The translations under genes and the position numbers were made by a program. This document shows positions 102 to 20,279 of a DNA stretch of 32,000 bases, piece after piece (the stretch's first letter is position 1; the number at the start of each line of letters is the position of its first letter). This DNA is from Pseudothioglobus sp. nBUS_23 (GTDB lineage Bacteria; Pseudomonadota; Gammaproteobacteria; PS1; Pseudothioglobaceae). A model generated the notes under the pieces. That model worked only from the letters and a program-made list of their open reading frames with translations, made no database searches and was not told the DNA's origin. The DNA is taken from contig NZ_CP179200.1 in the NCBI RefSeq assembly GCF_051201565.1, forward strand, positions 1,710,001 to 1,742,000, in the 5' to 3' direction.

Positions 102-135
102 ATAAAAAGAAGGGGCACGCTATAAACATGCCCCT
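102..135 (-). terminator. Intrinsic-terminator-like hairpin between the SBP and permease genes (candidate intra-operon attenuator)
   Basis: The minus-strand RNA reads AGGGGCAUG-UUUAUAG-CGUGCCCCU. The arms lie at 135-127 and 119-111: 7 Watson-Crick pairs plus one G.U and one G-C. UCUUUUUAU (110-102) follows directly. Confidence 0.55.
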
Positions 136-160: not shown

Positions 161-1390
161 TTAGAGATAACCTTTTTCTTTAGCAGCAGTTGTGTAAGCT
201 GCTTCTAAGTCAGCCAGTGCTTGACTAGCTGTTTCTTTTCCTTGCATGAAATCAACAAGCTCCTTACCTGCTGCTGAATGCATTAGACCAGCATATGGCA
301 ACATTGGATATGGAGTTGTTCCCATTGCAGCTGCAGCAAATACACCCTTGGCAGCATCTGTTGGCTGATAACCATCAATTAGCCAAACCGCTAACGGAGA
401 AGTTTCATCGTTTAGCATTTCAGGACGAATTGCATGCATCATAGCCATAAAGGTAGCTTCTGCATCTGCATCCGAAATGTTCTTAGAAACAGTGAATCCA
501 TCCCACCATAGTGTTGAAGCAGGAGTTGAGCCACCGCCTACTGTCATTGGACCTGCAATATCAGTATTATTTGCAACTGTTGGATCTACTTCATCACTCT
601 TAAGTGGTCCAACGCGAGAGCCCCACATATTCATAAGCGCAACATTACCTGCTTTCCATTCAGCACTCGTTGCATTTGAGTCGTGAGTCAAGAAGTCTGG
701 GTTCATGTAATCTGATAACGCTCTCATCATGTGAAGTGCATCTTCACCATGTTGATTGTTAACTGCAATCTCAGCAGAACCAGGCTTAAAGAACTCACCG
801 CCCTGACCAATGTACATATTGACAAATTCTTCAGCTAAGTTCCAACCAGCAGCATAAGCACCTCCGACTGGATGCTCCATCATTCCACTTGCACGTATAT
901 TCGCAGCAGCAACTAACATCTCTTCATAAGTTGTTGGCGGCGCAATACCTAACTGATCTAAGACATCTGCTCTGAAAACTAAATGCTGAGCGTTTGCCAT
1001 GAAGGCAATACCCATAATCTTTCCATCAACAGTGATTAGCTGGCTCTTCTTTAGGCCTTGACCATGCTTAGCAACTAGATCATCAAGCGGTCTAATCACA
1101 TCATTATTCATTAGTGCAACAATCGATGAGTTTGCAACAATCGCTGTTGTAAATTCAGCTGGATTACCTTGCATACCTGGCACATTAATTTTTTGGTGAT
1201 CAGCAGTTAAGTTTTTCTCAACTGTAACACCTCCACCAGCACATTCCATAGCGCCTGCACCAACAGTTTGGATCGCTGGGAACTCATTTCCAACAATGCT
1301 TACACGGCCATCGGATGCTCCACATCCTGCCCAGGCACTAGAAGCTAATGTTGTTAACGCTACAACTGTAGCAATTTTTCTTAAAAACAT
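161..1390 (-). CDS. ABC transporter periplasmic solute-binding protein, family 1 (sugar/polyol-type, CUT1-like)
   Basis: The ORF track starts at TTG 1414. ATG 1390 is the likelier start because AGGAGAG lies 5 nt upstream. This gives MFLRKIATVVALTTLASSAWAGC, a signal peptide with an AWA/G or lipobox-like AGC site. Length of about 409 aa and overall composition fit family-1 SBPs. A permease lies downstream and a MalK-like ATPase sits at the operon head. Confidence 0.85.
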   Translation of the reverse strand: MFLRKIATVVALTTLASSAWAGCGASDGRVSIVGNEFPAIQTVGAGAMECAGGGVTVEKNLTADHQKINVPGMQGNPAEFTTAIVANSSIVALMNNDVIRPLDDLVAKHGQGLKKSQLITVDGKIMGIAFMANAQHLVFRADVLDQLGIAPPTTYEEMLVAAANIRASGMMEHPVGGAYAAGWNLAEEFVNMYIGQGGEFFKPGSAEIAVNNQHGEDALHMMRALSDYMNPDFLTHDSNATSAEWKAGNVALMNMWGSRVGPLKSDEVDPTVANNTDIAGPMTVGGGSTPASTLWWDGFTVSKNISDADAEATFMAMMHAIRPEMLNDETSPLAVWLIDGYQPTDAAKGVFAAAAMGTTPYPMLPYAGLMHSAAGKELVDFMQGKETASQALADLEAAYTTAAKEKGYL

Positions 1391-1459
1391 ATTTACTCTC
1401 CTATTTATACTCAATTAAATACTCTTAGTATCACATCGAATGACCTTAAATCTTCATTT

Positions 1460-1473
1460 TGCATACGATTGCA
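1460..1473. promoter_or_regulatory. Putative LacI-family operator O1-A (TGCATACGATTGCA)
   Basis: A 14-bp pseudo-palindrome of the form TGCA-nn-CG-nn-TGCA with a central CG at 1466-1467. An identical copy lies at 11877-11890. On the minus strand it sits 4 nt downstream of an extended -10. Confidence 0.55.
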
Positions 1474-1477
1474 ATGA

Positions 1478-1486
1478 ATTATAACA
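1478..1486 (-). promoter_or_regulatory. Extended -10 promoter element (TGTTATAAT) for the SBP-permease transcript
   Basis: The minus strand reads TGTTATAAT, matching TGnTATAAT. It lies about 88 nt upstream of ATG 1390. The same arrangement recurs at 11895-11903. Confidence 0.5.
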
Positions 1487-1513
1487 CAGTCTATATTAAT
1501 ATATAAATAATTT

Positions 1514-1527
1514 TGCATTCGTATTCA
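1514..1527. promoter_or_regulatory. Putative auxiliary LacI-family operator O2-A (TGCATTCGTATTCA)
   Basis: A degenerate copy of the O1 motif with a central CG at 1520-1521. Its centre is 54 bp from the O1-A centre, the same spacing seen in the second intergenic region. Confidence 0.45.
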
Positions 1528-1595: not shown

Positions 1596-2576
1596 CTACT
1601 TTTGCCATTTTGGCAACGGGTCATAGCCGAGCTGCAACAATACATGTGGAACATCGACAAATACCCAATTTTCAACTAAGAGCTCATTTTCACGACGCCA
1701 CCAATCACAAACACGCATAAAAACTCGCTCGTTGGTTGGGCCTTGACCTAGGAATGGTTTAACGTTAACACCGGTCAATGATGGCCAGCCTCCTGAGCAG
1801 GTGTAATTGCCCTCGCCAAATCTTGTGAAGTGTTTTGTAAAGCCATTATTTTTTGTTCCACCTGACCACCCTTCAAACTGGGATTCAAACGGCACTTGAA
1901 ATGAAGCAAACTCCTCAACGCCAATAAAAGAACCGAATGCACCTGGTCCATACCACATCATATTCTTATGCCAATAAGGACGCCAGGCCTCATTCTTAGT
2001 CGCTAATTTATTGAGCATATCGGTAACAATTTGATAGCTTTGCTGCCCCTCAGCAGGGTCTAGAGAATTTATTAGGACGCCATCTCGTGACGCGGGGCCC
2101 TGAATCAGACCGGTGTATCCTCGGGAATACCCTGGACCCATATCCAAAGGCCATTGATTGCAGGCAATCATCAGTTCTGGAATATCTAGATAAATATAGC
2201 TTTCTACAGCTTGTTCATTCTCGATACGGTGGAATTCACCATAGCGCAGATAACTCAGACTTTTTGTCGATTTAATGCCGATCCAATCATTTTCGAATTG
2301 ACCAACATAATACCCGGTTGAGCTGATCCAATTTTGTCCCTCAAATTCTCCTGCCATGAAGATATCATCACGCCTATAGAGTCCTTCGAATGAATGTTGG
2401 AGCGGCAGGAGAAATTCATTAAGGTATATTTCTGCACCTTTGAGCTGATTAAACGGATGGACAACATTAATGTCAGCATCCTCACCAAAAAAAATCGCAA
2501 TGTTGGAAGAGAAGTCTCCCGGATGGCTCAATGCCGCTGCATATTTCAAATAGAATGAACGGTCATATATCGACAT
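1596..2576 (-). CDS. Tandem NTF2/SnoaL-like domain protein, function unknown
   Basis: ATG start with AGGAAAA 5 nt upstream. The C-terminal segment RVCDWWRRENELLVENWVFVDVPHVLLQLGYDP matches the SnoaL ester-cyclase C-terminal signature also seen in the 161-aa protein ([16 protein letters not shown]). The N-terminal half ends in an analogous ESYIYLDIPELMIACNQWP, which suggests two NTF2-like domains. Confidence 0.55.
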   Translation of the reverse strand: MSIYDRSFYLKYAAALSHPGDFSSNIAIFFGEDADINVVHPFNQLKGAEIYLNEFLLPLQHSFEGLYRRDDIFMAGEFEGQNWISSTGYYVGQFENDWIGIKSTKSLSYLRYGEFHRIENEQAVESYIYLDIPELMIACNQWPLDMGPGYSRGYTGLIQGPASRDGVLINSLDPAEGQQSYQIVTDMLNKLATKNEAWRPYWHKNMMWYGPGAFGSFIGVEEFASFQVPFESQFEGWSGGTKNNGFTKHFTRFGEGNYTCSGGWPSLTGVNVKPFLGQGPTNERVFMRVCDWWRRENELLVENWVFVDVPHVLLQLGYDPLPKWQK

Positions 2577-2634
2577 AATTTTTCCTATTAAAATAAATAA
2601 ACTTTATGGTAACTCAATGATCTATAGAATAAAA

Positions 2635-3342
2635 CTAGGTACGGGATTTTTCAAAATCTTCCCATGCTCTTTTAAAATCATCAAAACTAAATTCTGTTTT
2701 TTCTGCAGGGTCTAATATGAGCCTTTCAGAAGCAAACAGCTTATGAATTGAATCTTTCAAAATAGGTATTACTTCATTCGGAACTAGAACTGCTCCATGA
2801 CGATCTGCATGGATTAAGTTGCCTGGATTCACCGTCATTCCAAAGACATTTACAGGGGTATCTATCTCGCGGACATGCACAAAACCATGGCTAGGGCCTA
2901 TTGAACCAGCGACTACCGGAAAGCCTTCTGCAAGATCACCTAAATCTCTCATTACTCCATTGGTTAGAGCTCCTGAAAGTCCAAACCCCTTGTGTACTTT
3001 AGTATTAATTTCTCCCCAATAAGCTCCGATACAGTCTGGAAAATCAAGATCCTCAATAACTACAACTGTTGGTCCATTTATTTCAGACATATAGCGATAG
3101 TAATTCATTCTTCGCTCTTTAATAATTTCTGGGTTTTCTTTCGGTGGTTCTATTGCTGCAATCTTTGCAGTTTTAGCAAAACCAACCATAGCTCCACCGT
3201 CTGCATCAGAACAAAGCATCGTTCCTCTAGTAAATTGGGAAAAGCCCCGTTTGCCTTGAGCAACCTCAATCGCATTACAGACAGTTGGTGTATCGACCGA
3301 CTGAAGCAGTTTTAGTAAATCTGAATCTATCTCATCAGCCAT
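2635..3342 (-). CDS. RraA-like protein (4-hydroxy-4-methyl-2-oxoglutarate aldolase / oxaloacetate decarboxylase family)
   Basis: It carries a family-like pattern: TPTVCNAIE near the N-terminus, GALTNGVMRD, and GNLIHADRHGAVLVP near the C-terminus. GGAGG lies about 10 nt upstream of the ATG. The start overlaps the 3' end of the upstream hydrolase gene by 16 nt. Confidence 0.7.
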   Translation of the reverse strand: MADEIDSDLLKLLQSVDTPTVCNAIEVAQGKRGFSQFTRGTMLCSDADGGAMVGFAKTAKIAAIEPPKENPEIIKERRMNYYRYMSEINGPTVVVIEDLDFPDCIGAYWGEINTKVHKGFGLSGALTNGVMRDLGDLAEGFPVVAGSIGPSHGFVHVREIDTPVNVFGMTVNPGNLIHADRHGAVLVPNEVIPILKDSIHKLFASERLILDPAEKTEFSFDDFKRAWEDFEKSRT

Positions 3343-4019
3343 TCTTTTATTACCTCCGTTGTTTCTCTGGGTTGCTCCAATGTAGGCATATGGCCCGCAT
3401 TATTTATTATTTTTAAATCTGAATCAGTAATCATATTATGCATCATCTCATGCCTTTCCACAGGACATAATTTATCCTCCGAGCCACACAGAATCAATAC
3501 AGGGATTTTAATTGATTGAATAGTATCCTGTTGATCTAACCTTGATTGAAGGGCTCTTGATTGATTAATAAAAACATCTGGCCCTAGGGTCAACGCCATA
3601 TCCATACAAACATTTAGAACGCTCCTTTTGTTTTCACTTTCGGCAAGATAATTTGGTTTCATTTCATCTCGCATCACTTCGAGAAGCTTGCCCTGATTAA
3701 CCTCTCTTATCTGGGGTTCTCGCTTTAATTTAACTTCGTCTAGTTCAGCCTTAGGATTTGTATCCATAAGTATGAGTTTCTCAATCCGATTAGGTGCTTG
3801 AGAATATATTTCCATAGCAACAATGCCGCCCATTGAATGCCCTAAGAGTGAAAAATTTTTTGGAGCCTTTTTTAACACATCTGAGGCCAACTCCCTGACT
3901 GATGAAAAATTCGAAATATCTGCAATAGTTACTTCAAGGTTCTGACTCAGTGCTTCTATTTGTGGGGAAAAGATTCTTTCATCACACATCATTCCCGGAA
4001 CCATAACTAGACTTTTCAC
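3327..4019 (-). CDS. Alpha/beta-fold hydrolase
   Basis: It has the nucleophile elbow GHSMGG and later GSEDKLCP and NAGHMPTLEQP, which fit a Ser-Asp-His triad. The GTG start at 4019 lies 1 nt after the upstream TAG (translational coupling). An alternative ATG lies 5 codons in. Confidence 0.8.
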   Translation of the reverse strand: MKSLVMVPGMMCDERIFSPQIEALSQNLEVTIADISNFSSVRELASDVLKKAPKNFSLLGHSMGGIVAMEIYSQAPNRIEKLILMDTNPKAELDEVKLKREPQIREVNQGKLLEVMRDEMKPNYLAESENKRSVLNVCMDMALTLGPDVFINQSRALQSRLDQQDTIQSIKIPVLILCGSEDKLCPVERHEMMHNMITDSDLKIINNAGHMPTLEQPRETTEVIKEWLMR

Positions 4020-4021
4020 AA

Positions 4022-5149
4022 CTAATTACTTGCAATTAAAGCGCCCTCAGATAGTGACTTCAGCTTAGCAAATGCAATATCAGGATCTACAGCTCCAAAT
4101 CCTGCAAAGGTTCCAAAGCCACAGTCAGAGCCCGCTATAACTCTTTCCTTGCCGACAATGTTGACAAATTTATTGATCCTCTCAGCGACTAGCTCTGGGT
4201 GTTCAATAAAGTTAGTTGTCGTATCAACAACTCCAGGAACCAGTATTTTGTCATCTGGTATCTCTTTCTTTCGATCACGAAAGACTGTCCATTCATGAGC
4301 ATGTCTTGGATTTGAGGTCTCGAATAATGTGTATTGAGCATCCGCTTTCATTAAAGTTCCAAACACCTTATTCATGTCAATATCACAGACATGTGGGCCC
4401 TCATAGTTTCCCCAGCAAATATGAATTCTTACTTTTTCAGATGGGACATTTTTTAGAGCATGATTTAAAGCCTCCATATGCGACTCTGCGATCTTTATGA
4501 ACTCCGAATCCGATAGATCACTAAATAGCATATGTCTCGAAAGAGCCAGGTCCGGACAATCAAGTTGCAAGTCTAATCCTGAAGCGACAATCGTTTCATA
4601 TTCTTCTCTCATAGCATCTGCAAGTGCTGCAAGGTAGGCATCTCTAGTTGCATAAAAATCATTCTGCAGAAATAAAGAAATGACACCCGGTGAGGCTGCA
4701 TTCATAAAACCCCTCTCAACTCCATGAGCTTTCATTGCATTTTTTAAATTGGCGATATCTTTTTGAAGCTCTCCCTGACCCTTGGATTTTACTTCTCCAG
4801 TGCACATTGGCCTAGCATATTGTGGCGTACCTCCCTCATCTGCAAGTCTTTGAAGAAATCCTGGAAAAAGCTTTAAATCTTCTGGTGCATTTCTTGGGCT
4901 ATCTCCCGAAAAACCGGTATATCTATCTTTGACATAAGTAGCATATGAAATTTTGGAGGTTTCGCCATCACTAACAATGTCAATTCCAGAGTTTTTTTGT
5001 TTTTCAACTGTACTCAAAACGTTTCTTTGCATACATTCATCAAAGCTATTTTGATCATATTTTTTATTATTTTCTCTAGCGAAAATAAAGTCGACCACCC
5101 CCTGACTTCTTGGCAGTGAGCCGACATGACTGGTTAAAATTTTATTCAA
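4022..5149 (-). CDS. Core-MetE-like protein (cobalamin-independent methionine synthase C-terminal / URO-D-CIMS-like Zn fold)
   Basis: The N-terminus TSHVGSLPRS is typical of the Meth_synt_2 family. Putative Zn ligands are the His-x-Cys in RIHICWGNY, the Glu in LFETSNP and the Cys in AGSDCGFG. The TTG start is supported by AAGGAG 6 nt upstream. At 375 aa this is the single-barrel core form. Confidence 0.7.
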   Translation of the reverse strand: MNKILTSHVGSLPRSQGVVDFIFARENNKKYDQNSFDECMQRNVLSTVEKQKNSGIDIVSDGETSKISYATYVKDRYTGFSGDSPRNAPEDLKLFPGFLQRLADEGGTPQYARPMCTGEVKSKGQGELQKDIANLKNAMKAHGVERGFMNAASPGVISLFLQNDFYATRDAYLAALADAMREEYETIVASGLDLQLDCPDLALSRHMLFSDLSDSEFIKIAESHMEALNHALKNVPSEKVRIHICWGNYEGPHVCDIDMNKVFGTLMKADAQYTLFETSNPRHAHEWTVFRDRKKEIPDDKILVPGVVDTTTNFIEHPELVAERINKFVNIVGKERVIAGSDCGFGTFAGFGAVDPDIAFAKLKSLSEGALIASN

Positions 5150-5171
5150 ATCAATCTCCTTAAAATAAATA

Positions 5172-6137
5172 CTACATTCTCCATGTTGGCCCTGCTATAT
5201 CATTAGTCTTAGTCACCCGAAAAAGACTGGCATCATTTGAGTTTAATGGAACCATTCTATAAGTTAGGTTTGGCGTTATGAGGCATGTGTCCCCCTCTGA
5301 CAATTCTGAACTACCACCTTCATACTCTAAAGACCAGCTACCCTTTGAAATCATATTAACTTGATACTGGTCTGGAAAATCAAACTCATCAATAAACGAA
5401 TTATTTGTAATAAAGTCAACTTCAAAACCGGGTCTATCTTTTAATATTCCGTTTTTACCTATGACATTGACTGAGCCTTTTTTTGAGCTTTCAAAGAGAT
5501 CTGCTGCACTAACAAAAAAATTTTCTTGAAATTCTTCGGTTGTAACGATAGGAAAATCTTTTAGCTCGTCTTCACTTAAAAGAGGCATTGGATTAACATG
5601 GCTTGGTAGCGACTCTCCTTTTTTAGTGTCATAAAGCAACCCATTTTCACCCAATATCAAACCATATTCTTTGGCATTATTGATGACTTCTGGAGCCCAT
5701 GTCACTCCGCCTCCCGCATCATCACCTCCGAGAACTGCCATTAACATTCCATAGGAATTACCAATATTTTTAAATGCTCTAAAAACACCAGTAGGTATAT
5801 TAACCAAGTCTCCTTCATTCGCAATCACTTCACCATCTTTTCCATCACGGCCCCAAAAGAAACGCCACCTTCCTTTAAGGACATAAAAAACTTCTGCTGT
5901 AGTGTGAGAGTGTAATGAATTAGTACAGCCTGGTGGCTGACCAGCTGCACCAATATTAAAGCCAGGAGTCTCCTTAATATGAACATGTTGATCAGGGCTT
6001 TCAGAAACCCCAGAACCAATAATTGTAAAATTTTCTTTTTGATTTGAGCCAGGCGTATGGGCATCAATAAATGCCGTCTTACATGGCTTTAAATCAGCAT
6101 ATCTCACAATAAATTTTTCCATCTCTTTCGAGGTCAT
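5172..6137 (-). CDS. Bicupin protein (one metal-site cupin plus one degenerate cupin)
   Basis: The N-terminal domain carries cupin motif 1, GCTNSLHSHTTAEVFYVLKG (HxHxxxE), and motif 2-like GDLVNIPTGVFRAFKN. The C-terminal half (GSWSLEYEGGSSELSEGDTCLITP) has cupin-like spacing but no His ligands. Confidence 0.7.
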   Translation of the reverse strand: MTSKEMEKFIVRYADLKPCKTAFIDAHTPGSNQKENFTIIGSGVSESPDQHVHIKETPGFNIGAAGQPPGCTNSLHSHTTAEVFYVLKGRWRFFWGRDGKDGEVIANEGDLVNIPTGVFRAFKNIGNSYGMLMAVLGGDDAGGGVTWAPEVINNAKEYGLILGENGLLYDTKKGESLPSHVNPMPLLSEDELKDFPIVTTEEFQENFFVSAADLFESSKKGSVNVIGKNGILKDRPGFEVDFITNNSFIDEFDFPDQYQVNMISKGSWSLEYEGGSSELSEGDTCLITPNLTYRMVPLNSNDASLFRVTKTNDIAGPTWRM

Positions 6138-6140
6138 AAA

Positions 6141-7109
6141 TTAGCCTGTTTTGATTATTATTTGCTTCCATAAAGCTGTTTCATCGAACAGAGTGTATTC
6201 CCTTCTTAATCCCCACGGTCCAAACTCTGCATGGGTAACTCCCATAACATATAAATCAGCCCCTGTAGGTTCACCAAAAACCCCCCATCCATCATGCTTA
6301 CCTTTGAGATTCCATCGAACCGCGGCTCTTGGAGAAAGCTGTTCATCTTCGCGTCCGATTTGATGCTCTACTGTAAATTTTGCACTTGGCATTGAGGAGC
6401 GAAGACCCATCCAAAACTCTTCTGCATGATTATATGAATGACCACTGACGCCTCCTGGATATTCAAGATGACAGCCCCGGTCATATTGAGACCTAAAGAC
6501 TGAGGAATCTGAATTCATAATACGCTCCAATATGTCAACGAATCTCTCTCCCCATTCATTTTGGTTACCTTTTCCAGTGTATGGTCCAGCCAAATCCATC
6601 GAATCATTGAATGGATGCTGGCATTGCTGAACACCCCCCTCCTGATCTATCTGATTTCTAGCAAAATCCTGCGGAGTCATGCCTAGCTGTCTAACAATAG
6701 CTCCTTGGTCTCTTATTAGCCACTCATCATTTACCTGGTTGTTGATTGCATGACAATCTGCAATGGTCCTGAATACAACTTTTTTACCAGTTGCATTTCC
6801 AAATGAGCCATCTCCGAGATGGGAGGCTGTTGAAATAATTCGATGAGAAGACAACATCCCTTTCTCTGGACTGCCTGACCAAATTACATCTTCTCCTAAA
6901 AGCTTACGATCAGGAAACTCAAATAATGTTGCCTTGGTGGCATCGATAACTGTGTTATTGCCAATCACCAGAGAGGGTGGCGCTCTTAAAATAATATCAT
7001 CTGAATATAGATACAGAAGTTTATCAATACCTCTCTCTTCCCAAATTTCATGAGTTATGCCATTAATCCAATCTGGAAAATTTGCATACTTTGAATCGAA
7101 CCCTTCCAT
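6141..7109 (-). CDS. Tandem NTF2/SnoaL-like domain protein, function unknown
   Basis: ATG start with AGGAGA 7 nt upstream. The first domain ends DEWLIRDQGAIVRQLGMTP, a SnoaL-type signature. The second half (VRWNLKGKHDGWGVFGEPTG...REYTLFDETALWKQI) looks like a second NTF2-like fold. Confidence 0.6.
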   Translation of the reverse strand: MEGFDSKYANFPDWINGITHEIWEERGIDKLLYLYSDDIILRAPPSLVIGNNTVIDATKATLFEFPDRKLLGEDVIWSGSPEKGMLSSHRIISTASHLGDGSFGNATGKKVVFRTIADCHAINNQVNDEWLIRDQGAIVRQLGMTPQDFARNQIDQEGGVQQCQHPFNDSMDLAGPYTGKGNQNEWGERFVDILERIMNSDSSVFRSQYDRGCHLEYPGGVSGHSYNHAEEFWMGLRSSMPSAKFTVEHQIGREDEQLSPRAAVRWNLKGKHDGWGVFGEPTGADLYVMGVTHAEFGPWGLRREYTLFDETALWKQIIIKTG

Positions 7110-7119
7110 TAATTATCTC

Positions 7120-8132
7120 CTATTTTTCAGACATTCTTGCAGACCCTCTGACCATGAGTGGGCCATCAATTTCAATTCTTCTTGCGGTTGTAGTCTTGTT
7201 CTCAATACTTTCAATTAATATTGAAACGGTTTCTGCTACCATTCGATTTGCAGGTTGACGAACAGTTGTTAGGTCGTAGGCTGGCCATGATGAAATGGGG
7301 ACATCATCATATCCAACAACAGAGACCTGCTCGGGGACTTTTAGTCCAAGCTCAAACCTAATTACATCTATCACTGCAATGGCCATTGCATCATTAGCAA
7401 TGAAAACTGCATCTGGATAATCTTTTTTGGTAAACATTTTTCTTGCAGCTTGTCTAGCTTCATCTGTATTAAAGTTGCCAACTTCGCGAGCATAGAGCTC
7501 TTGTCCATTTCTGGCTAGCTCATTTACGAATCCTTTTTCTCGATCTCGTTGCGTAGAAGCTCCTTCCCAACCCGCAATATATCCAATTTTCTTATGGCCC
7601 CCAGCCATAAGAAATCGTGCAACTTTCTGACCACCAAGCTCATTATCAGATGTGACTGCAGAGAACCTTTCATCATCTTGAGATCTATTAAATAGGACAA
7701 CAGGGACTCCAGCTGATCCACATCTTTTTGCCAAGTCAGAGGACATAGAAACAGATGCAGCAATAATTCCATCAACTTGATAGTCTAATATTTCATCAAC
7801 TGCATCCTCAATATCATCCTCAGTATTTCCAGCCATAAATATAAGAACGTGATATCCTTTCTTTTGAAGAGCACTGGATAGAAGCTCTAATGCCTCTGGA
7901 TAAAAATAATTATCAAGATAGGCCACAACAAGCCCAATAATTCTTGACTTTCCTGTTATCAATGAACGAGCAAGAACATTTGGCCTATAGCCAAGCTTTG
8001 CTGCCGCCTTACGAACTAATTCGTCTGTTTTTTTAGAAGATGACGCTCCAGGGTAAACACGCGAGAAACAGCAGACTGGCTAACACCGGCTAATTTAGCG
8101 ACCTCCAATGATGTAACTTTTTTATTTTCCAT
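7120..8132 (-). pseudogene. LacI-family transcriptional regulator, disrupted by a 1-nt frameshift between the HTH and effector domains
   Basis: ATG 8132-8130 overlaps the SDR stop as TAATG. It encodes MENKKVTSLEVAKLAGVSQSAVSRV, a LacI-type HTH, then reads on out of frame and terminates at TAG 8018-8016. A second frame, closed upstream by TAG 8082-8080, reads RVYPGASSSKKTDELVRKAAAKLGYRPNVLARSLITGKSRIIGLVV. That frame runs straight into the 280-aa effector-domain ORF (7120-7962). Confidence 0.75.
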
Positions 8133-8899
8133 TAGTCTGCAGTCCATCCTCCGTCTATCATCAAAGCAGAGCCAGTGATCATGCTAGATGCATCTGACGC
8201 AAGAAAGACCACTGCTCCCATCACATCCTCAACCTCTCCAACTCGACCTAGTTTAATCTTGTCTTCTATCCATTTTTTGCGATCCGGATTGTCAAATGTA
8301 GACTGTGTTAAGGGCGTTCGAATAAATGTTGGACAAATGGTATTCACTCTAATTTGATGCCTCCCCCACTCAATAGCCATTGCCTTTGTAAACCCCTCGA
8401 CAGCATGTTTTGAGGCCGCGTATACTGCTCGATCAACCCCGCCAACATGGCCCATTTGAGAAGATATATTAATCAACGATCCAGGCTTTTTTGCTTTAAT
8501 TAAAGCTTTTGCAATAGACTGTGTAAGGAAGTATGCTCCCTTAAGATTTACATCCATTACCGCCTCAAAATCTTCGGCGGATGTTTCTAACGAGGGAGTA
8601 TGTCGACCCAAGCCAGCACTATTAACCAAAACATCAAAAGGCTTTTGTTCTTTTAAAACAGTATCAATTGAGACTAAATCTGAGATATCAATCTGTAAAG
8701 TCTCTGCACTGAATCCTTTCATGATAATTGCCTCAGCTGCTTCACTTAAAGCTTTAATATTTCTTGAGGCTAAGACAACATCAGCTCCGGCCTCAGCCAG
8801 AGCAACTGCACATCCTAAGCCAATTCCTGATGAAGCGCCAGTTACTAACGCCCTAAGGCCATCCAGTCTTAATGAAGGCGTCTTAGGTAAATCAATCAT
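8132..8899 (-). CDS. Classical short-chain dehydrogenase/reductase (FabG-like)
   Basis: It has TGASSGIGLG (TGxxxGxG), NSAG and the catalytic YAASK (YxxxK). AAGGAG lies 9 nt upstream of the ATG. Confidence 0.9.
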   Translation of the reverse strand: MIDLPKTPSLRLDGLRALVTGASSGIGLGCAVALAEAGADVVLASRNIKALSEAAEAIIMKGFSAETLQIDISDLVSIDTVLKEQKPFDVLVNSAGLGRHTPSLETSAEDFEAVMDVNLKGAYFLTQSIAKALIKAKKPGSLINISSQMGHVGGVDRAVYAASKHAVEGFTKAMAIEWGRHQIRVNTICPTFIRTPLTQSTFDNPDRKKWIEDKIKLGRVGEVEDVMGAVVFLASDASSMITGSALMIDGGWTAD

Positions 8900-8953
8900 T
8901 TATTGCGCTCCTTGCTAACTACAAGGGCTTTATTGGTTGAGTGCAAACTAGAC

Positions 8954-10264
8954 TTATTGAGCAGCTTTACCATAGGGCACATCTTCACCACCATAACGCC
9001 TAACTCTTATGTTGGCCTGCTCTGCATGACCCACAAAAGACTCAAGCATACAGAGTCTTGAGCAGTATCTGCCAATCTTGACAGCTGCTTCATCCGTTGT
9101 AATTTTTTGGTAGCTATGTGTTTTAAGATACTTACCAACCCATAGACCGCCAGTGTAGCGCCCCGCTTTTTTTGTAGGAAGCGTATGGTTAGTTCCAATC
9201 ACCTTATCACCATTTGATACGTTAGTTCTTGGTCCTAAAAATAATGCACCATAAGAGTGCATATTTTCCAGGAACCAGTCATCTCGATCAGTCATTACTT
9301 GAACATGCTCAGAGGCAATCTCATTGGCAACCTCAAGCATTTCATCGTAGGTGTCACAAACAACAACCTCACCATACTCCTCCCAACTAACGCCAGCAGT
9401 ATCGGCTGTAGGAAGAATGGTGAGTATTCTATCAATTTCATTAAGAGTCTCATCTGCAAGATTTTGACTATTGGTTACAAGGACCGCTGGCGAGTTATAG
9501 CCATGCTCAGCCTGACCAAGAAGATCAGTTGCGCACAATTCAGCATCTACTGTCTCATCTGCAATCACCATAGTCTCTGTTGGACCAGCAAAAAGATCAA
9601 TTCCAACTCGTCCGAAGAGTTGTCTTTTAGCTTCAGCCACATATGCATTACCTGGACCGACCAGCATATCGACTGGGGCAATCGTTTCAGTGCCTAAGGC
9701 CATAGCACCAACAGCTTGAATGCCACCAATGACATAAATCTCATGAGCTCCACCAAGATGCATTGCAGCAATGACCGCTGCATTAGGCTGACCTTGATAG
9801 GGCGGAGTGCAAGCTACAATTCTAGGAACCTTTGCAACACTAGCTGTAACTACTGACATGTGTGCAGAGGCAACCATTGGGAACTTCCCTGCTGGCACAT
9901 AACAGCCTACTGACTGAACAGGAATATTTTTGTGTCCAAGAATAACTCCTGGCATTGTTTCAACTTCAATATCTTGCATCGAGTCTCTTTGAGCTTGTGC
10001 AAAGTTCCTCACTTGTTCTTGAGCAAACTTAATGTCTTTCATGTCTCTATCAGACACATTTGAAATAAGATTATCAATCTCAGCTGAGCTTAGTTTGTAT
10101 GATTTTGGTGAATAATTATCAAACTTTTCTGAGAACTCTCTAACAGCAGCATCACCTTTTTCTTCAATGACTTTTAAAGTATTTTTGACTACCTCACTTA
10201 CCTGAGCATCGTCGATTGCTTTATCTTCAGCAGTTTTTCCTTTTTTTAAATAATATATTGCCAT
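8954..10264 (-). CDS. Histidinol-dehydrogenase-family NAD-dependent alcohol-to-acid dehydrogenase (HisD paralog in a catabolic context)
   Basis: HisD signature residues are kept: GQAEHG (Zn Gln/His), ASEHVQV (catalytic Glu-His) and GTNHTLPT. Length is 436 aa. No other his genes are nearby. Confidence 0.8.
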
Positions 10265-10275
10265 AGTAATTCCAA

Positions 10276-10761
10276 TTAATTAGGTTTGGGTGGTTCGGCC
10301 TCACCCCGATCAAAAGCCTCCCAACCCTGGCCATTAAAAACATCAACTCCAAGTTGGGCAAGAATACTTGGGAAATCTACATTGACCCAATTATCAACAA
10401 TGAGGCCATCTCTAACTTCCCAAAAATCTGTGTAATGAATTTTCACGCGCTTATTTGTAGGTTTAATGCCCATGAATTCTCCACTATGAACAGCATCGAT
10501 GTGCCCAAAACAAGAAGCCCATTCACCATCCACAAGAAACTTGTCTGTTTTATAGATTCTATCTGTAAAAGCTGCTCTTAAAGGGAGCTGCCAGTTGTTT
10601 CGAAACTCTTCAAGATTATTTTTTGTTCCACATCCTTGATTGCCCATCCATCGAAAATCTTTATGAAAATGCTTATCCATACTATTTGAATTAGCCCCTA
10701 AAGCCTCTTCCATTGCCTTGATTACTGCAAGGGTTTTTTGGGATTTTTCATCATAACTCAT
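10276..10761 (-). CDS. SnoaL-like ester cyclase / NTF2-fold protein (single domain)
   Basis: 161 aa. The C-terminal [26 protein letters not shown] is the typical SnoaL-family signature. Confidence 0.75.
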
Positions 10762-10774
10762 AATATCTCTCTAA

Positions 10775-11827
10775 CTAGCTGTCTAGCATTTGTCCAGTTT
10801 CACTATCAAACAATAAGCATAAATTTGCAGAAATATTAGCCATAACCTTTGAACCTATATCAACGTGATAGTTTTTGTCAGACTTAATTGAAATCAATTC
10901 TCCTCCAGATTTGATGGATACCATTGTCATATCTCCAAGAAGCTCCATTGAAAATGCTGGAGCAGAAATAGCACCTTTTGACTTAACAATAACTGCATCC
11001 TCTGCTCTAAAACCAAGAGTCACATTGCCCTTGTGTTTTTTACTCAAACCATCAATCTTTACGCCTTCACACGTGAAAACACCATCCTTAATTGAGCCTT
11101 TCAATAGATTCATAGCTGGCGACCCAATAAAGCTTGCAACGAAACTATTGGCGGGTTTGTTGTATATTTCTTGAGGTGTTCCAACTTGCTGAACGATTCC
11201 AGCATTCATTACAACAACTCTGTCTGCCAAAGTCATTGCCTCTACCTGATCATGTGTCACATAAATAGTGGTAACTTTTAAACTGTGCTGTAAATTTTTT
11301 ATTTGTGCACGAGTAGAAACACGTAATTTAGCATCGAGATTTGATAATGGCTCATCCATCAAAAAAACTGTTGGCTCTCTTACAATTGCTCTTGCTAGTG
11401 CAACTCTTTGCCTTTGCCCTCCAGAGAGTTCTGCTGGTTTTCTGTGAAGAAAATCATTCAGTTCAACCATTTCAGAGGCCCTCATCACTTTCTCATCATG
11501 GAGAGATTTATCAATTTTTCTAACCTTTAAAGGAAAACGAATATTTTCATAAACTGTCATGTTGGGGTATAACGCATAAGATTGAAATACCATGGCAACA
11601 TCTCGGTCTTTTGGTTCAAGAGAGTTAACCACTTTTCCATCAATTAAAACCTCACCACTTGTAACATTCTCAAGGCCAGCAATCATTCTCATTGTCGTTG
11701 TCTTGCCACAACCTGAAGGCCCTAACAAAACTAAAAACTCTTCGTCAGGTATAGTAAGGTTAAAGTTATCTACACCGACAAAATTACCCCATCGTTTTGT
11801 AAGATTTTTTAATTCAATTTCTGCCAT
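10775..11827 (-). CDS. ABC transporter ATP-binding protein, MalK/UgpC/MsmK type
   Basis: It has Walker A GPSGCGKTT, the signature LSGGQRQRVALARA, Walker B FLMDEPLSNLD, an H-loop in TTIYVTHD, and a C-terminal MalK-like regulatory/TOBE region. Confidence 0.95.
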   Translation of the reverse strand: MAEIELKNLTKRWGNFVGVDNFNLTIPDEEFLVLLGPSGCGKTTTMRMIAGLENVTSGEVLIDGKVVNSLEPKDRDVAMVFQSYALYPNMTVYENIRFPLKVRKIDKSLHDEKVMRASEMVELNDFLHRKPAELSGGQRQRVALARAIVREPTVFLMDEPLSNLDAKLRVSTRAQIKNLQHSLKVTTIYVTHDQVEAMTLADRVVVMNAGIVQQVGTPQEIYNKPANSFVASFIGSPAMNLLKGSIKDGVFTCEGVKIDGLSKKHKGNVTLGFRAEDAVIVKSKGAISAPAFSMELLGDMTMVSIKSGGELISIKSDKNYHVDIGSKVMANISANLCLLFDSETGQMLDS

Positions 11828-11876: not shown

Positions 11877-11890
11877 TGCATACGATTGCA
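11877..11890. promoter_or_regulatory. Putative LacI-family operator O1-B (TGCATACGATTGCA)
   Basis: An exact copy of the 1460-1473 motif; the identity extends to 15 nt. On the minus strand it sits 4 nt downstream of an extended -10. It lies in the divergent gap between the ABC ATPase and BKACE genes. Confidence 0.55.
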
Positions 11891-11894
11891 AAAT

Positions 11895-11903
11895 ATTATA
11901 GCA
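11895..11903 (-). promoter_or_regulatory. Extended -10 promoter element (TGCTATAAT) for the ATPase-led operon
   Basis: The minus strand reads TGCTATAAT, about 68 nt upstream of ATG 11827. Its register relative to the operator is the same as at 1478-1486. Confidence 0.5.
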
Positions 11904-11930
11904 CAAGGTTTTTTCTTTTAAAGGTAATGT

Positions 11931-11944
11931 TGCAATCCTATGCA
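11931..11944. promoter_or_regulatory. Putative auxiliary LacI-family operator O2-B (TGCAATCCTATGCA)
   Basis: It has one mismatch to the reverse complement of O1 (central CC instead of CG). Its centre is 54 bp from the O1-B centre and 79 nt upstream of the BKACE ATG. Confidence 0.45.
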
Positions 11945-11973: not shown

Positions 11974-12000
11974 ATTTGAATTTTGAAATAAAATTCAAAT
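11974..12000. promoter_or_regulatory. Perfect 11-bp inverted repeat (ATTTGAATTTT-GAAAT-AAAATTCAAAT) upstream of the BKACE gene
   Basis: The arms at 11974-11984 and 11990-12000 are exact reverse complements with a 5-nt spacer. The repeat ends 22 nt before ATG 12023, just upstream of the AAGGGGAG ribosome-binding site. Confidence 0.4.
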
Positions 12001-19076: not shown

Positions 19077-20279
19077 CTAAAATTCAATCCCTTCAACCTC
19101 AGCAATCGTTTGCATATCCTTGTCGCCTCTGCCAGAGAGATTAATGATAATTGATTTATCACTAGACCATTCTTTTGCTAATTTCACTGCATAAGCAATA
19201 GCATGCGATGGCTCTAGTGCTGGAATAATTCCCTCTACCTCAGTTAAAAGATGAAATGCCTCAAGAGCCTCCTTATCAGTAATAGCAACATACTCCGCTC
19301 TGCCAATATCTTTTAGATAAGCATGCTCAGGTCCAACTCCAGGGTAGTCAAGACCTGCTGAAATAGAATGGCCCTCAATTATTTGGCCACTTTCATTTTC
19401 CATGAGGTAAGTTCTATTTCCATGCAGAACACCAACACTTCCAGCTGTTAGCGGCGCAGCATGTGCATCAGGCCCGAGATCGATACCTCGTCCTCCAGCT
19501 TCAACACCAATAATTCTGACCGAAGTATCCTCAATGAAAGGGTGGAAAAGCCCAATTGCATTTGAGCCTCCTCCAACACAAGCAATTATGGCATCAGGAA
19601 GACCTCCGACTTGTTTATCAAATTGCTCTTTGGCCTCTTTACCGATGACGCTTTGGAAGTCCCTTACGAGCATTGGATAGGGATGAGGGCCTGCTACAGT
19701 GCCAATAATATAATAGGTGTCATCGATGTTAGTCACCCAGTCTCGCATTGCCTCATTTAAAGCATCTTTAAGTGTTTTTGAGCCAGATGATACTGGGACT
19801 ACAGTTGCGCCGAGAAGCTTCATTCGATAAACATTCTGTACCTGTCTGACTACGTCAACCTCTCCCATATAGACCACGCACTCAAGCCCTAATCTGGCAG
19901 CAATAGTGGCCGACGCAACACCATGTTGGCCAGCGCCTGTTTCTGCGATGATACGAGTTTTACCCATTCTCTTAGCGAGCAAAGCTTGGCCAATTGTGTT
20001 ATTGACTTTGTGCGCGCCAGTATGATTCAGGTCTTCACGTTTTAAATATATTTTTGCTCCACCAATCTTCTTTGTTAGGTTTTCAGCATAGTAAAGTGGC
20101 GTCTCTCTGCCTACATAATGCTTAAGATCATACTCAAACTCCTTTAGAAAATCTGGATCATCTTTGTATTTTTCATAGGCTTCATTTAACTCAGTTACTG
20201 CCGACATAAGAGTTTCTGCAACAAAAATGCCACCATATTGATCAAAATGACCGTGCTCATCTGGAAGGTTATAACTCAT
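19077..20279 (-). CDS. trpB: Tryptophan synthase beta chain
   Basis: It has [17 protein letters not shown] and the PLP-lysine motif HTGAHKVNN, plus GGGSNAIG. The ATG overlaps the trpF TGA as ATGA. Confidence 0.97.

Follow-up and report, generated by a model that had tools for sequence, protein, structure and literature searches.

The segment at positions 11877-11944 of the window (the whole analysed stretch of 32,000 nucleotides from Pseudothioglobus sp. nBUS_23) lies in the gap between two divergent units, an ATPase-led operon on the minus strand and a BKACE gene followed by lcdH on the plus strand, and the question it raises is which of these genes its regulatory sites serve. The initial annotation had described the segment as one copy of a duplicated promoter and dual-operator module, and had proposed that a single LacI-type repressor could control the ATPase-led operon, the internal SBP promoter and the divergent BKACE-lcdH unit, which would tie the enzymes of the operon to carnitine and betaine metabolism. 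Our preferred reading, to which we assign a probability of about 80%, is that the ATPase-led operon has its regulatory core in this segment, where a predicted sigma-70 TG-extended promoter is clamped by the operators of the LacI-family repressor encoded in the same operon.

The letters of the segment were re-read, and the positions of TGCATACGATTGCA, TGCTATAAT and TGCAATCCTATGCA, the 4-nt gap, the 54-bp distance between centres and the 79 nt to BKACE were all recovered as first annotated (Table 1). The proximal site O1B is the consensus 14-mer and forms the core of a palindrome of ~20 bp. It is centred at 11883.5, and the distal site O2B at 11937.5, which places them 54 bp apart and at 56 and 110 nt upstream of the ATPase ATG, respectively. 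Positions 11895-11903 read ATTATAGCA on the plus strand, the complement of TGCTATAAT on the minus strand, and two more bases extend this to TGTGCTATAAT; four nucleotides (AAAT) separate the -10 box from O1B. O2B is the reverse complement of O1B with one change, the central CG having become CC on the plus strand (GG on the operon strand), and it was found 7 nt upstream of the -35 position. Its end (11944) lies 79 nt from the A of the BKACE ATG (12023). A consensus promoter scan called a TG-extended -10 promoter on the minus strand both here and at a second module near the SBP gene (TTTAAA-16-TATAAT and TTTATA-18-TATAAT), and O1B and O2B flank the -10 and -35 elements that the scan called. The GG centre of O2B should weaken binding compared to CG, and the occupancy of this site is uncertain.

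Table 1. Positions of the regulatory elements and genes discussed in the text, numbered from the first letter of the window.
Feature	Positions	Strand	Sequence or remark
SBP gene under module A	161-1414	-	417 aa; followed by a hairpin and then by a permease gene running off the window
O1A, proximal operator of SBP promoter (predicted)	1460-1473	-	14-mer identical to O1B
Extended -10 of SBP promoter (predicted)	1478-1488	-	TGTGTTATAAT
O2A, distal operator of SBP promoter (predicted)	1514-1527	-	TGCATTCGTATTCA; operon strand TGAATACGAATGCA; 54 bp from O1A
ATPase-led operon under module B	1596-11827	-	intergenic gaps of at most 58 nt
LacI-family regulator gene inside operon	7120-8131	-	repaired product 337 aa
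O1B, promoter-proximal operator (predicted)	11877-11890	-	plus strand TGCATACGATTGCA; operon strand TGCAATCGTATGCA
Extended -10 of ATPase-operon promoter (predicted)	11895-11905	-	TGTGCTATAAT
Weak -35-like hexamer, module B	11917-11922	-	TTTAAA with 16-nt spacer, or CTTTAA with 17
O2B, distal (auxiliary) operator (predicted)	11931-11944	-	plus strand TGCAATCCTATGCA; operon strand TGCATAGGATTGCA

Chance similarity among AT-rich intergenic sequences was considered as an explanation of the sites. When three mismatches to the exact 14-mer were allowed, 6 matches were counted against 3.4 expected, which is not significant and would fit such a reading. At one mismatch or fewer, however, TGCAWWCGWWTGCA was matched 5 times in the window against an expectation of 0.15 +/- 0.36, and 0 of 100 shuffles reached 5. 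The position, orientation and spacing of the sites are also kept in more than 50 genomes, so that chance is already refuted and has a negligible probability. The fifth of the TGCAWWCGWWTGCA matches (AGCAATCGTTTGCA, 19101-19114) falls within the 3' end of a trpB-like ORF, with an MFS transporter gene beginning ~100 nt further on; this match was set aside as an operator and is probably a chance match, since it sits inside an ORF and is partnerless.

The conservation of the module was assessed in 80 loci, one genome per species, that were fetched with the repaired LacI-family regulator as the query; all loci were chosen through a LacI ortholog. The set comprises SUP05/'Candidatus Thioglobus' (78-98% identity) and many Rhodobacteraceae, Rhizobiaceae and other alphaproteobacteria (64-71%), and the gene cluster was conserved across it. 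In these 1.37 Mb, selected via the regulator, 120 of the 125 motif matches were located no more than 250 bp ahead of an ortholog of the ATPase or the SBP gene, and at least 3 of the remaining 5 (in L006, L012 and L013) were also upstream of an SBP gene. Of the 65 sequences with an ATPase ortholog (the window and 64 loci), 53 had a pair of sites ahead of the ATPase gene, with a spacing of 54 bp in 29 (the window included), 55 bp in 16, 56-57 bp in 5, 52-53 bp in 2 and 98 bp in 1; 51 of the pairs were counted at 52-57 bp. The other 12 sequences were without a clear pair, some being cut at contig ends and some having a single site.

When the modules were aligned, a common layout appeared: O2, 7 nt, -35, 17 nt, -10, 4-5 nt, O1. 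The -35 element reads CTTGCC in the alphaproteobacteria, CTTGCA in copy A of the clade of L009, and a weak CTTTAA or CTTTCA in the window's clade; the Thioglobus -10 is TGTGCTATAAT or TGTGTTATAAT. Among the fetched Thioglobus copy-B modules, TGTGCTATAAT was kept in 9 of 10, with TGTGATATAAT in L010. O1B is invariant or near-invariant in all Thioglobus loci and is kept in the alphaproteobacterial loci as well. The consensus of 106 sites is (ttt)TGCAwwCGwwTGCA(aaa), a palindrome of ~20 bp, and the module as a whole is dyad-symmetric, with outward-facing half-sites that read TGCATAC in ~90% of cases and promoter-facing half-sites that are variable. Loss of motif and spacing in orthologous intergenic regions was the result by which the initial annotation was to be judged wrong. 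This comparison was run, and motif, order and the spacing of 54-55 bp were found to be common to two classes of Proteobacteria, from Thioglobus (Gammaproteobacteria) to Rhodobacteraceae and Rhizobiaceae. It was also noted that a GANTC motif, the form of a CcrM methylation site, recurs in many alphaproteobacterial modules (e.g., L029 1563-1600, L037 and L048), at 4-8 nt downstream of O1 and ~17 nt beyond O2.

In Thioglobus the layout occurs twice, once ahead of the ATPase-led operon and once ahead of the SBP gene, where it was found at 1460-1527 of the window. Positions 1478-1486 read ATTATAACA, the -10 box of copy A is TGTTATAAT, and a 4-nt gap to O1A is present as in copy B. The description of the two modules as duplicated holds for their architecture and fails for their sequence, as A and B are ~47-52% identical outside the operators and the -10, which is near the AT-rich background. 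Across genomes, the identity of the inter-operator segment was 47% for A-B, 54% for A-A and 64% for B-B comparisons. A recent duplication as the origin of A and B was rejected in view of the 47% inter-operator identity, and their likeness would reflect either an old duplication or shared function. In the window's clade, the proximal site of each module follows the consensus and the distal one is slightly defective (the GG centre in O2B; TGA for TGC in O2A), a pairing of putative operators that matches the classical main-plus-auxiliary pattern.

We then considered which protein would recognize these sites. According to Ravcheev et al. 2014 (PMC4052901), LacI-type sites are even palindromes with a central CG that lie ~30-140 bp from the start codon. 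Such a palindrome with a central CG was found in O1B, O1A and O2A, O2B with its GG/CC centre being the exception. The motif is predicted to represent LacI-family operators of an ordinary kind that are well conserved. A cognate gene is present within the locus itself: after repair of a frameshift, the product shows Peripla_BP_1/3/4 domains and a LacI-type helix-turn-helix. Its start overlaps the stop of the upstream SDR gene (TAATG), an arrangement of translational coupling, and the regulator would be autoregulated since its gene lies within the operon. The helix-turn-helix AGVSQSAVSRVFTPGAS and the hinge YRPNVLAR are invariant in 80 of 80 orthologs, and this invariance of recognition helix and hinge fits the invariant TGCA/CG core of the sites.

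The regulator is intact in all 80 orthologous loci and frameshifted in the window. The lesion is a 1-nt deletion in codon 27 (near 8052), inside the helix-turn-helix, where the window reads TTTAC-CCTGG compared to TTTACTCCTGG. It was absent from 80 of 80 orthologs, including that of the close relative L003 (97% regulator identity), and was shared with the Logan contig L081, which is 99.99% identical over 12,963 bp and may derive from the same organism or the same reads as the window. With its DNA-binding domain frameshifted, the regulator would probably leave the still-perfect operators of the window unoccupied, and this strain is probably derepressed, with constitutive expression of the operon.

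That the operators remain perfect beside a frameshifted local regulator is the observation that could favour binding by another factor, such as a global regulator, in place of the operon's LacI-family protein. The sites nevertheless have the even palindrome with a central CG that is typical of the LacI family, they occur almost only upstream of the ATPase and SBP genes of the cluster (within the loci chosen via the LacI ortholog), and the DNA-reading residues of the regulator are invariant in parallel with the TGCA...CG...TGCA core. We consider another binding factor to be very improbable. For the single repressor proposed at the outset, control of the ATPase-led operon and of the SBP promoter is upheld by paired, conserved sites of operator form, while its extension to BKACE-lcdH is not supported, as is set out below.

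The most likely mechanism, as judged from the arrangement of the elements, is steric repression at O1 that is reinforced by a dimer at O2. The -10 box predicts a start site near 11887-11888, and O1B would span approximately -2 to +12, such that a dimer on the consensus O1 would cover the start and block RNA polymerase. A second dimer on the weaker O2 would be centred at approximately -49, just upstream of the -35 and roughly five turns of the helix from O1, on the same face, where it could stabilise repression through cooperative contact or through exclusion of the upstream contacts of the polymerase. An imported substrate or a pathway intermediate would release the repressor. It was noted that 54-55 bp corresponds to 5.1-5.2 turns at 10.5 bp/turn, a value that would arise just as well if each site simply adjoined a standard -35/17/-10 promoter, with no need for cooperation between the proteins.

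The sites could also serve two promoters without cooperation, O1 repressing the ATPase promoter and O2 acting as the primary operator of a divergent promoter. The window and most alphaproteobacterial loci do have a divergent gene that starts within ~50-80 nt of O2, and the LacI family often has shared sites in divergent gaps (PMC4052901). This arrangement appears quite unlikely, however, because O2 is kept at 53-54 bp where the upstream gene is co-directional, as observed for copy A (the window and 8 fetched genomes) and likewise for copy B of L009, L012, L013 and L066, and because the opposite strand of the inter-operator segment, inspected by eye, is without promoter-like hexamers. Since the spacing is kept where no divergent gene exists, O2 would serve the downstream promoter and not only a divergent one.

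Paired sites of this kind were compared with known systems. In the survey of LacI-family regulons, multiple sites occur in ~20% of regulated operons, the preferred inter-site distances are 13, 22 and 32 bp, and two sites in helical phase are taken as a sign of cooperative dimers (PMC4052901). Compared to the tandem operators of that survey, the pair described here is 54-55 bp apart and encloses the whole core promoter instead of lying side by side (PMC4052901). Local LacI-family repressors with tandem operators (the double sites of RafR and ScrR; E. coli GntR at gntKU) share with this module the palindrome form and the distance to the start codon, and their regulator genes likewise belong to or adjoin a sugar-type ABC transporter or catabolic cluster and are autoregulated, as is predicted here. 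The lac O1/O3 and gal OE/OI pairs combine a strong operator at the start with a weaker upstream auxiliary in helical phase, an arrangement that the module described here would share, and here too one promoter would need both sites. In the lac system, 92 bp separate O1 from O3, and a LacI tetramer held by a C-terminal four-helix bundle spans the two. Unlike LacI, the regulator described here has 337 aa without such a tail, and a loop of 54 bp would be unusually tight.

This difference was apparent from alignments to LacI, PurR, RbsR and CcpA, in which the LacI-type C-terminal tetramerisation segment was not found in the 337-aa regulator. The protein aligned end to end with the 330-340-aa chains of PurR, RbsR and CcpA, its residues 8-331 corresponding to PurR 3-329 (of 340) and its residues 7-332 to RbsR 3-330 (of 330). 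With the 360-aa LacI, the match ended at LacI residue 306 and only 29 query residues were left. Because the LacI-type C-terminal tail is missing, a classical tetramer loop is doubtful, and the regulator is expected to be a dimer.

Part of the original proposal is that the same repressor would act through the module on the ATPase-led operon as well as on the divergent BKACE-lcdH unit, which would assign the enzymes to carnitine or betaine metabolism. The plus strand of the window does carry BKACE and then LcdH, a carnitine 3-dehydrogenase with a thioesterase tail that scores over the NCBIfam carnitine 3-dehydrogenase cut-off (722 vs 592 bits). The short distance of 79 nt from O2B to the BKACE start is in line with joint control, the alphaproteobacterial module also sits in a short divergent gap, which makes two-way control plausible in principle, and BKACE-LcdH-MttB adjoin the operon in all Thioglobus loci that extend far enough to show it. 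This adjacency was encountered only in Thioglobus, however. In all alphaproteobacterial loci that keep the module, BKACE and lcdH are missing beside it, and the divergent neighbour is a SnoaL-like gene that starts ~50-75 nt beyond O2. The proposed tie of the operon's enzymes to carnitine and betaine metabolism was consequently not supported, as BKACE-lcdH adjoins the module only in Thioglobus.

Further evidence against joint control came from a sister Thioglobus clade. In L009, L012, L013 and L066, a 320-aa GATase1-AraC gene (L009 5227-6189) was found between BKACE and the module, divergent from BKACE and co-directional with the module B operon. Its product has GbdR as its best match at 226 bits, which is below the equivalog cut-off of 480. 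The module lies ~1.1 kb from BKACE in these four genomes, yet it is unchanged. In Pseudomonas, the carnitine genes under CdhR/GbdR have a GATase1-AraC activator gene (cdhR) divergent from the carnitine operon, and the GbdR-like gene of the sister clade is likewise divergent from BKACE-lcdH. The window's clade differs from that system in being without such a gene at the locus, and the sites described here are LacI-type palindromes, not AraC-type. A GbdR/CdhR-like gene was absent at the window's locus and throughout the 32-kb window, and it was also absent in L001, L002, L004, L005 and L010, where, as in the window, BKACE lies 73-80 nt from O2. The want of a dedicated activator gene in the window's clade could be counted in favour of joint control. 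Nevertheless, the interval between O2 and BKACE is poorly conserved: in this clade the sequence hardly varies between O2 and O1, whereas the 80 bp on the BKACE side differ in both sequence and length.

The plus strand was also examined for a BKACE promoter. A consensus scan found no sigma-70-type promoter there, and the -10-like candidates picked by eye were weak. With the best of them, TAAAAT at 11989-11994, O2B would fall at approximately -57 to -70 and lie beyond the core promoter. An inverted repeat with perfect 11-nt arms was observed at 11974-11984 and 11990-12000 (ATTTGAATTTT and AAAATTCAAAT), 23 nt upstream of the BKACE ATG. It was considered as a second operator or RNA hairpin and set aside, being confined to the window, L001 and L002 and folding no better than shuffled sequences (z = -0.65).

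Taken with the loci compared above, these features make joint control of BKACE-lcdH unlikely. The regulator gene that separates the two units in the clade of L009 is absent in the window's clade, and the shared gap is for that reason best read as the result of gene loss or rearrangement and not as a region that evolved for joint control. That the module lies close to the carnitine genes seems to be a by-product of gene order, although a repressor bound at O2B may incidentally influence BKACE transcription. In a related scenario, which we also hold to be improbable, loss of the GbdR/CdhR-like activator brought BKACE-lcdH next to O2 and amounted to regulatory rewiring, by which carnitine breakdown would have joined the LacI regulon and both units would be constitutive in this strain. 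The six genomes without the GbdR-like gene all have GG at the centre of O2B, compared to CG in L009, L012, L013 and L066, and the change from CG to GG, found only in the activator-less clade, could be part of such retuning. L014, whose fetched sequence stops short of the upstream region, also has CG at the O2B centre, and the difference may be a clade marker only.

Returning to the ATPase-led operon as the unit served by the module, we examined the genes that it would control. Their order is a MalK-type ABC ATPase, SnoaL (161 aa), an HpsN/HisD-like dehydrogenase, SDR, the LacI-family regulator, a double SnoaL, a bicupin, and then MetE-like, alpha/beta hydrolase, RraA-like aldolase and SnoaL-like (326 aa) genes. 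Apart from this operon, the SBP and permease genes, BKACE and lcdH, the 32-kb window consists of housekeeping genes. The HisD-like enzyme (8954-10264, minus strand) was nearest to the sulfopropanediol (DHPS) 3-dehydrogenase HpsN (PDB 8v35, E = 5e-110), compared to E = 5e-73 for the nearest true HisD, and this likeness hints at an alcohol-to-acid oxidation of a substrate other than histidinol. The SBP was without a match in Pfam and NCBIfam at default thresholds, and its best PDB match was a weak one to the sulfoquinovosyl-glycerol-binding protein SmoF (E = 1e-6). No PDB relatives of the bicupin and the double-SnoaL protein were found. Since the HpsN, SmoF and other PDB matches are too thin, no substrate name was assigned. 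A literature search for a published description of the cluster or its regulon, including Thioglobus with carnitine, BKACE or DHPS, yielded nothing relevant. Together, the HpsN-like enzyme, SnoaL proteins, bicupin, MetE-like and RraA-like enzymes suggest a catabolic route for an imported, probably algal, metabolite.

Additional features were noted around the transport genes. A terminator-like hairpin (111-135, minus strand; AGGGGCA...TGCCCCT and a T-run) separates the SBP stop codon from the start of the permease gene and is a possible attenuator giving an excess of SBP over permease. In the alphaproteobacterial locus L079 (11109-18549), and also in L074, a reduced unit of SnoaL, ATPase, SBP, permeases and LacI was encountered, adjoined by a GntR-family regulator and DHDPS-like, ALDH, MttB-like, two SDR and DAO genes. 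In L074 and L079, the MttB-like gene next to the LacI ortholog was considered as a sign of a link to methylamines and set aside; it probably belongs to a neighbouring unit, since it sits behind the separate GntR-family regulator gene in L079.

These results point to an operator-promoter module of an ordinary LacI-family kind that is predicted to control an uncharacterised marine catabolic and transport cluster of at least 11 genes, which is common to heterotrophic SUP05/Thioglobus and many marine Rhodobacteraceae and is marked by this module. Its ~20-bp palindrome in a fixed, promoter-clamping layout provides a testable signature of the regulon. For assigning function by neighbourhood, the locus advises caution, as the carnitine genes beside the operon have their own regulator in sister genomes. 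If the deletion in the regulator gene is real, no functional DNA-binding domain would be left in the repressor of this strain, both the operon and the SBP gene would be expressed constitutively, and the operators would be recent relics. The repressor and the SBP would offer direct handles on the substrate of the cluster.
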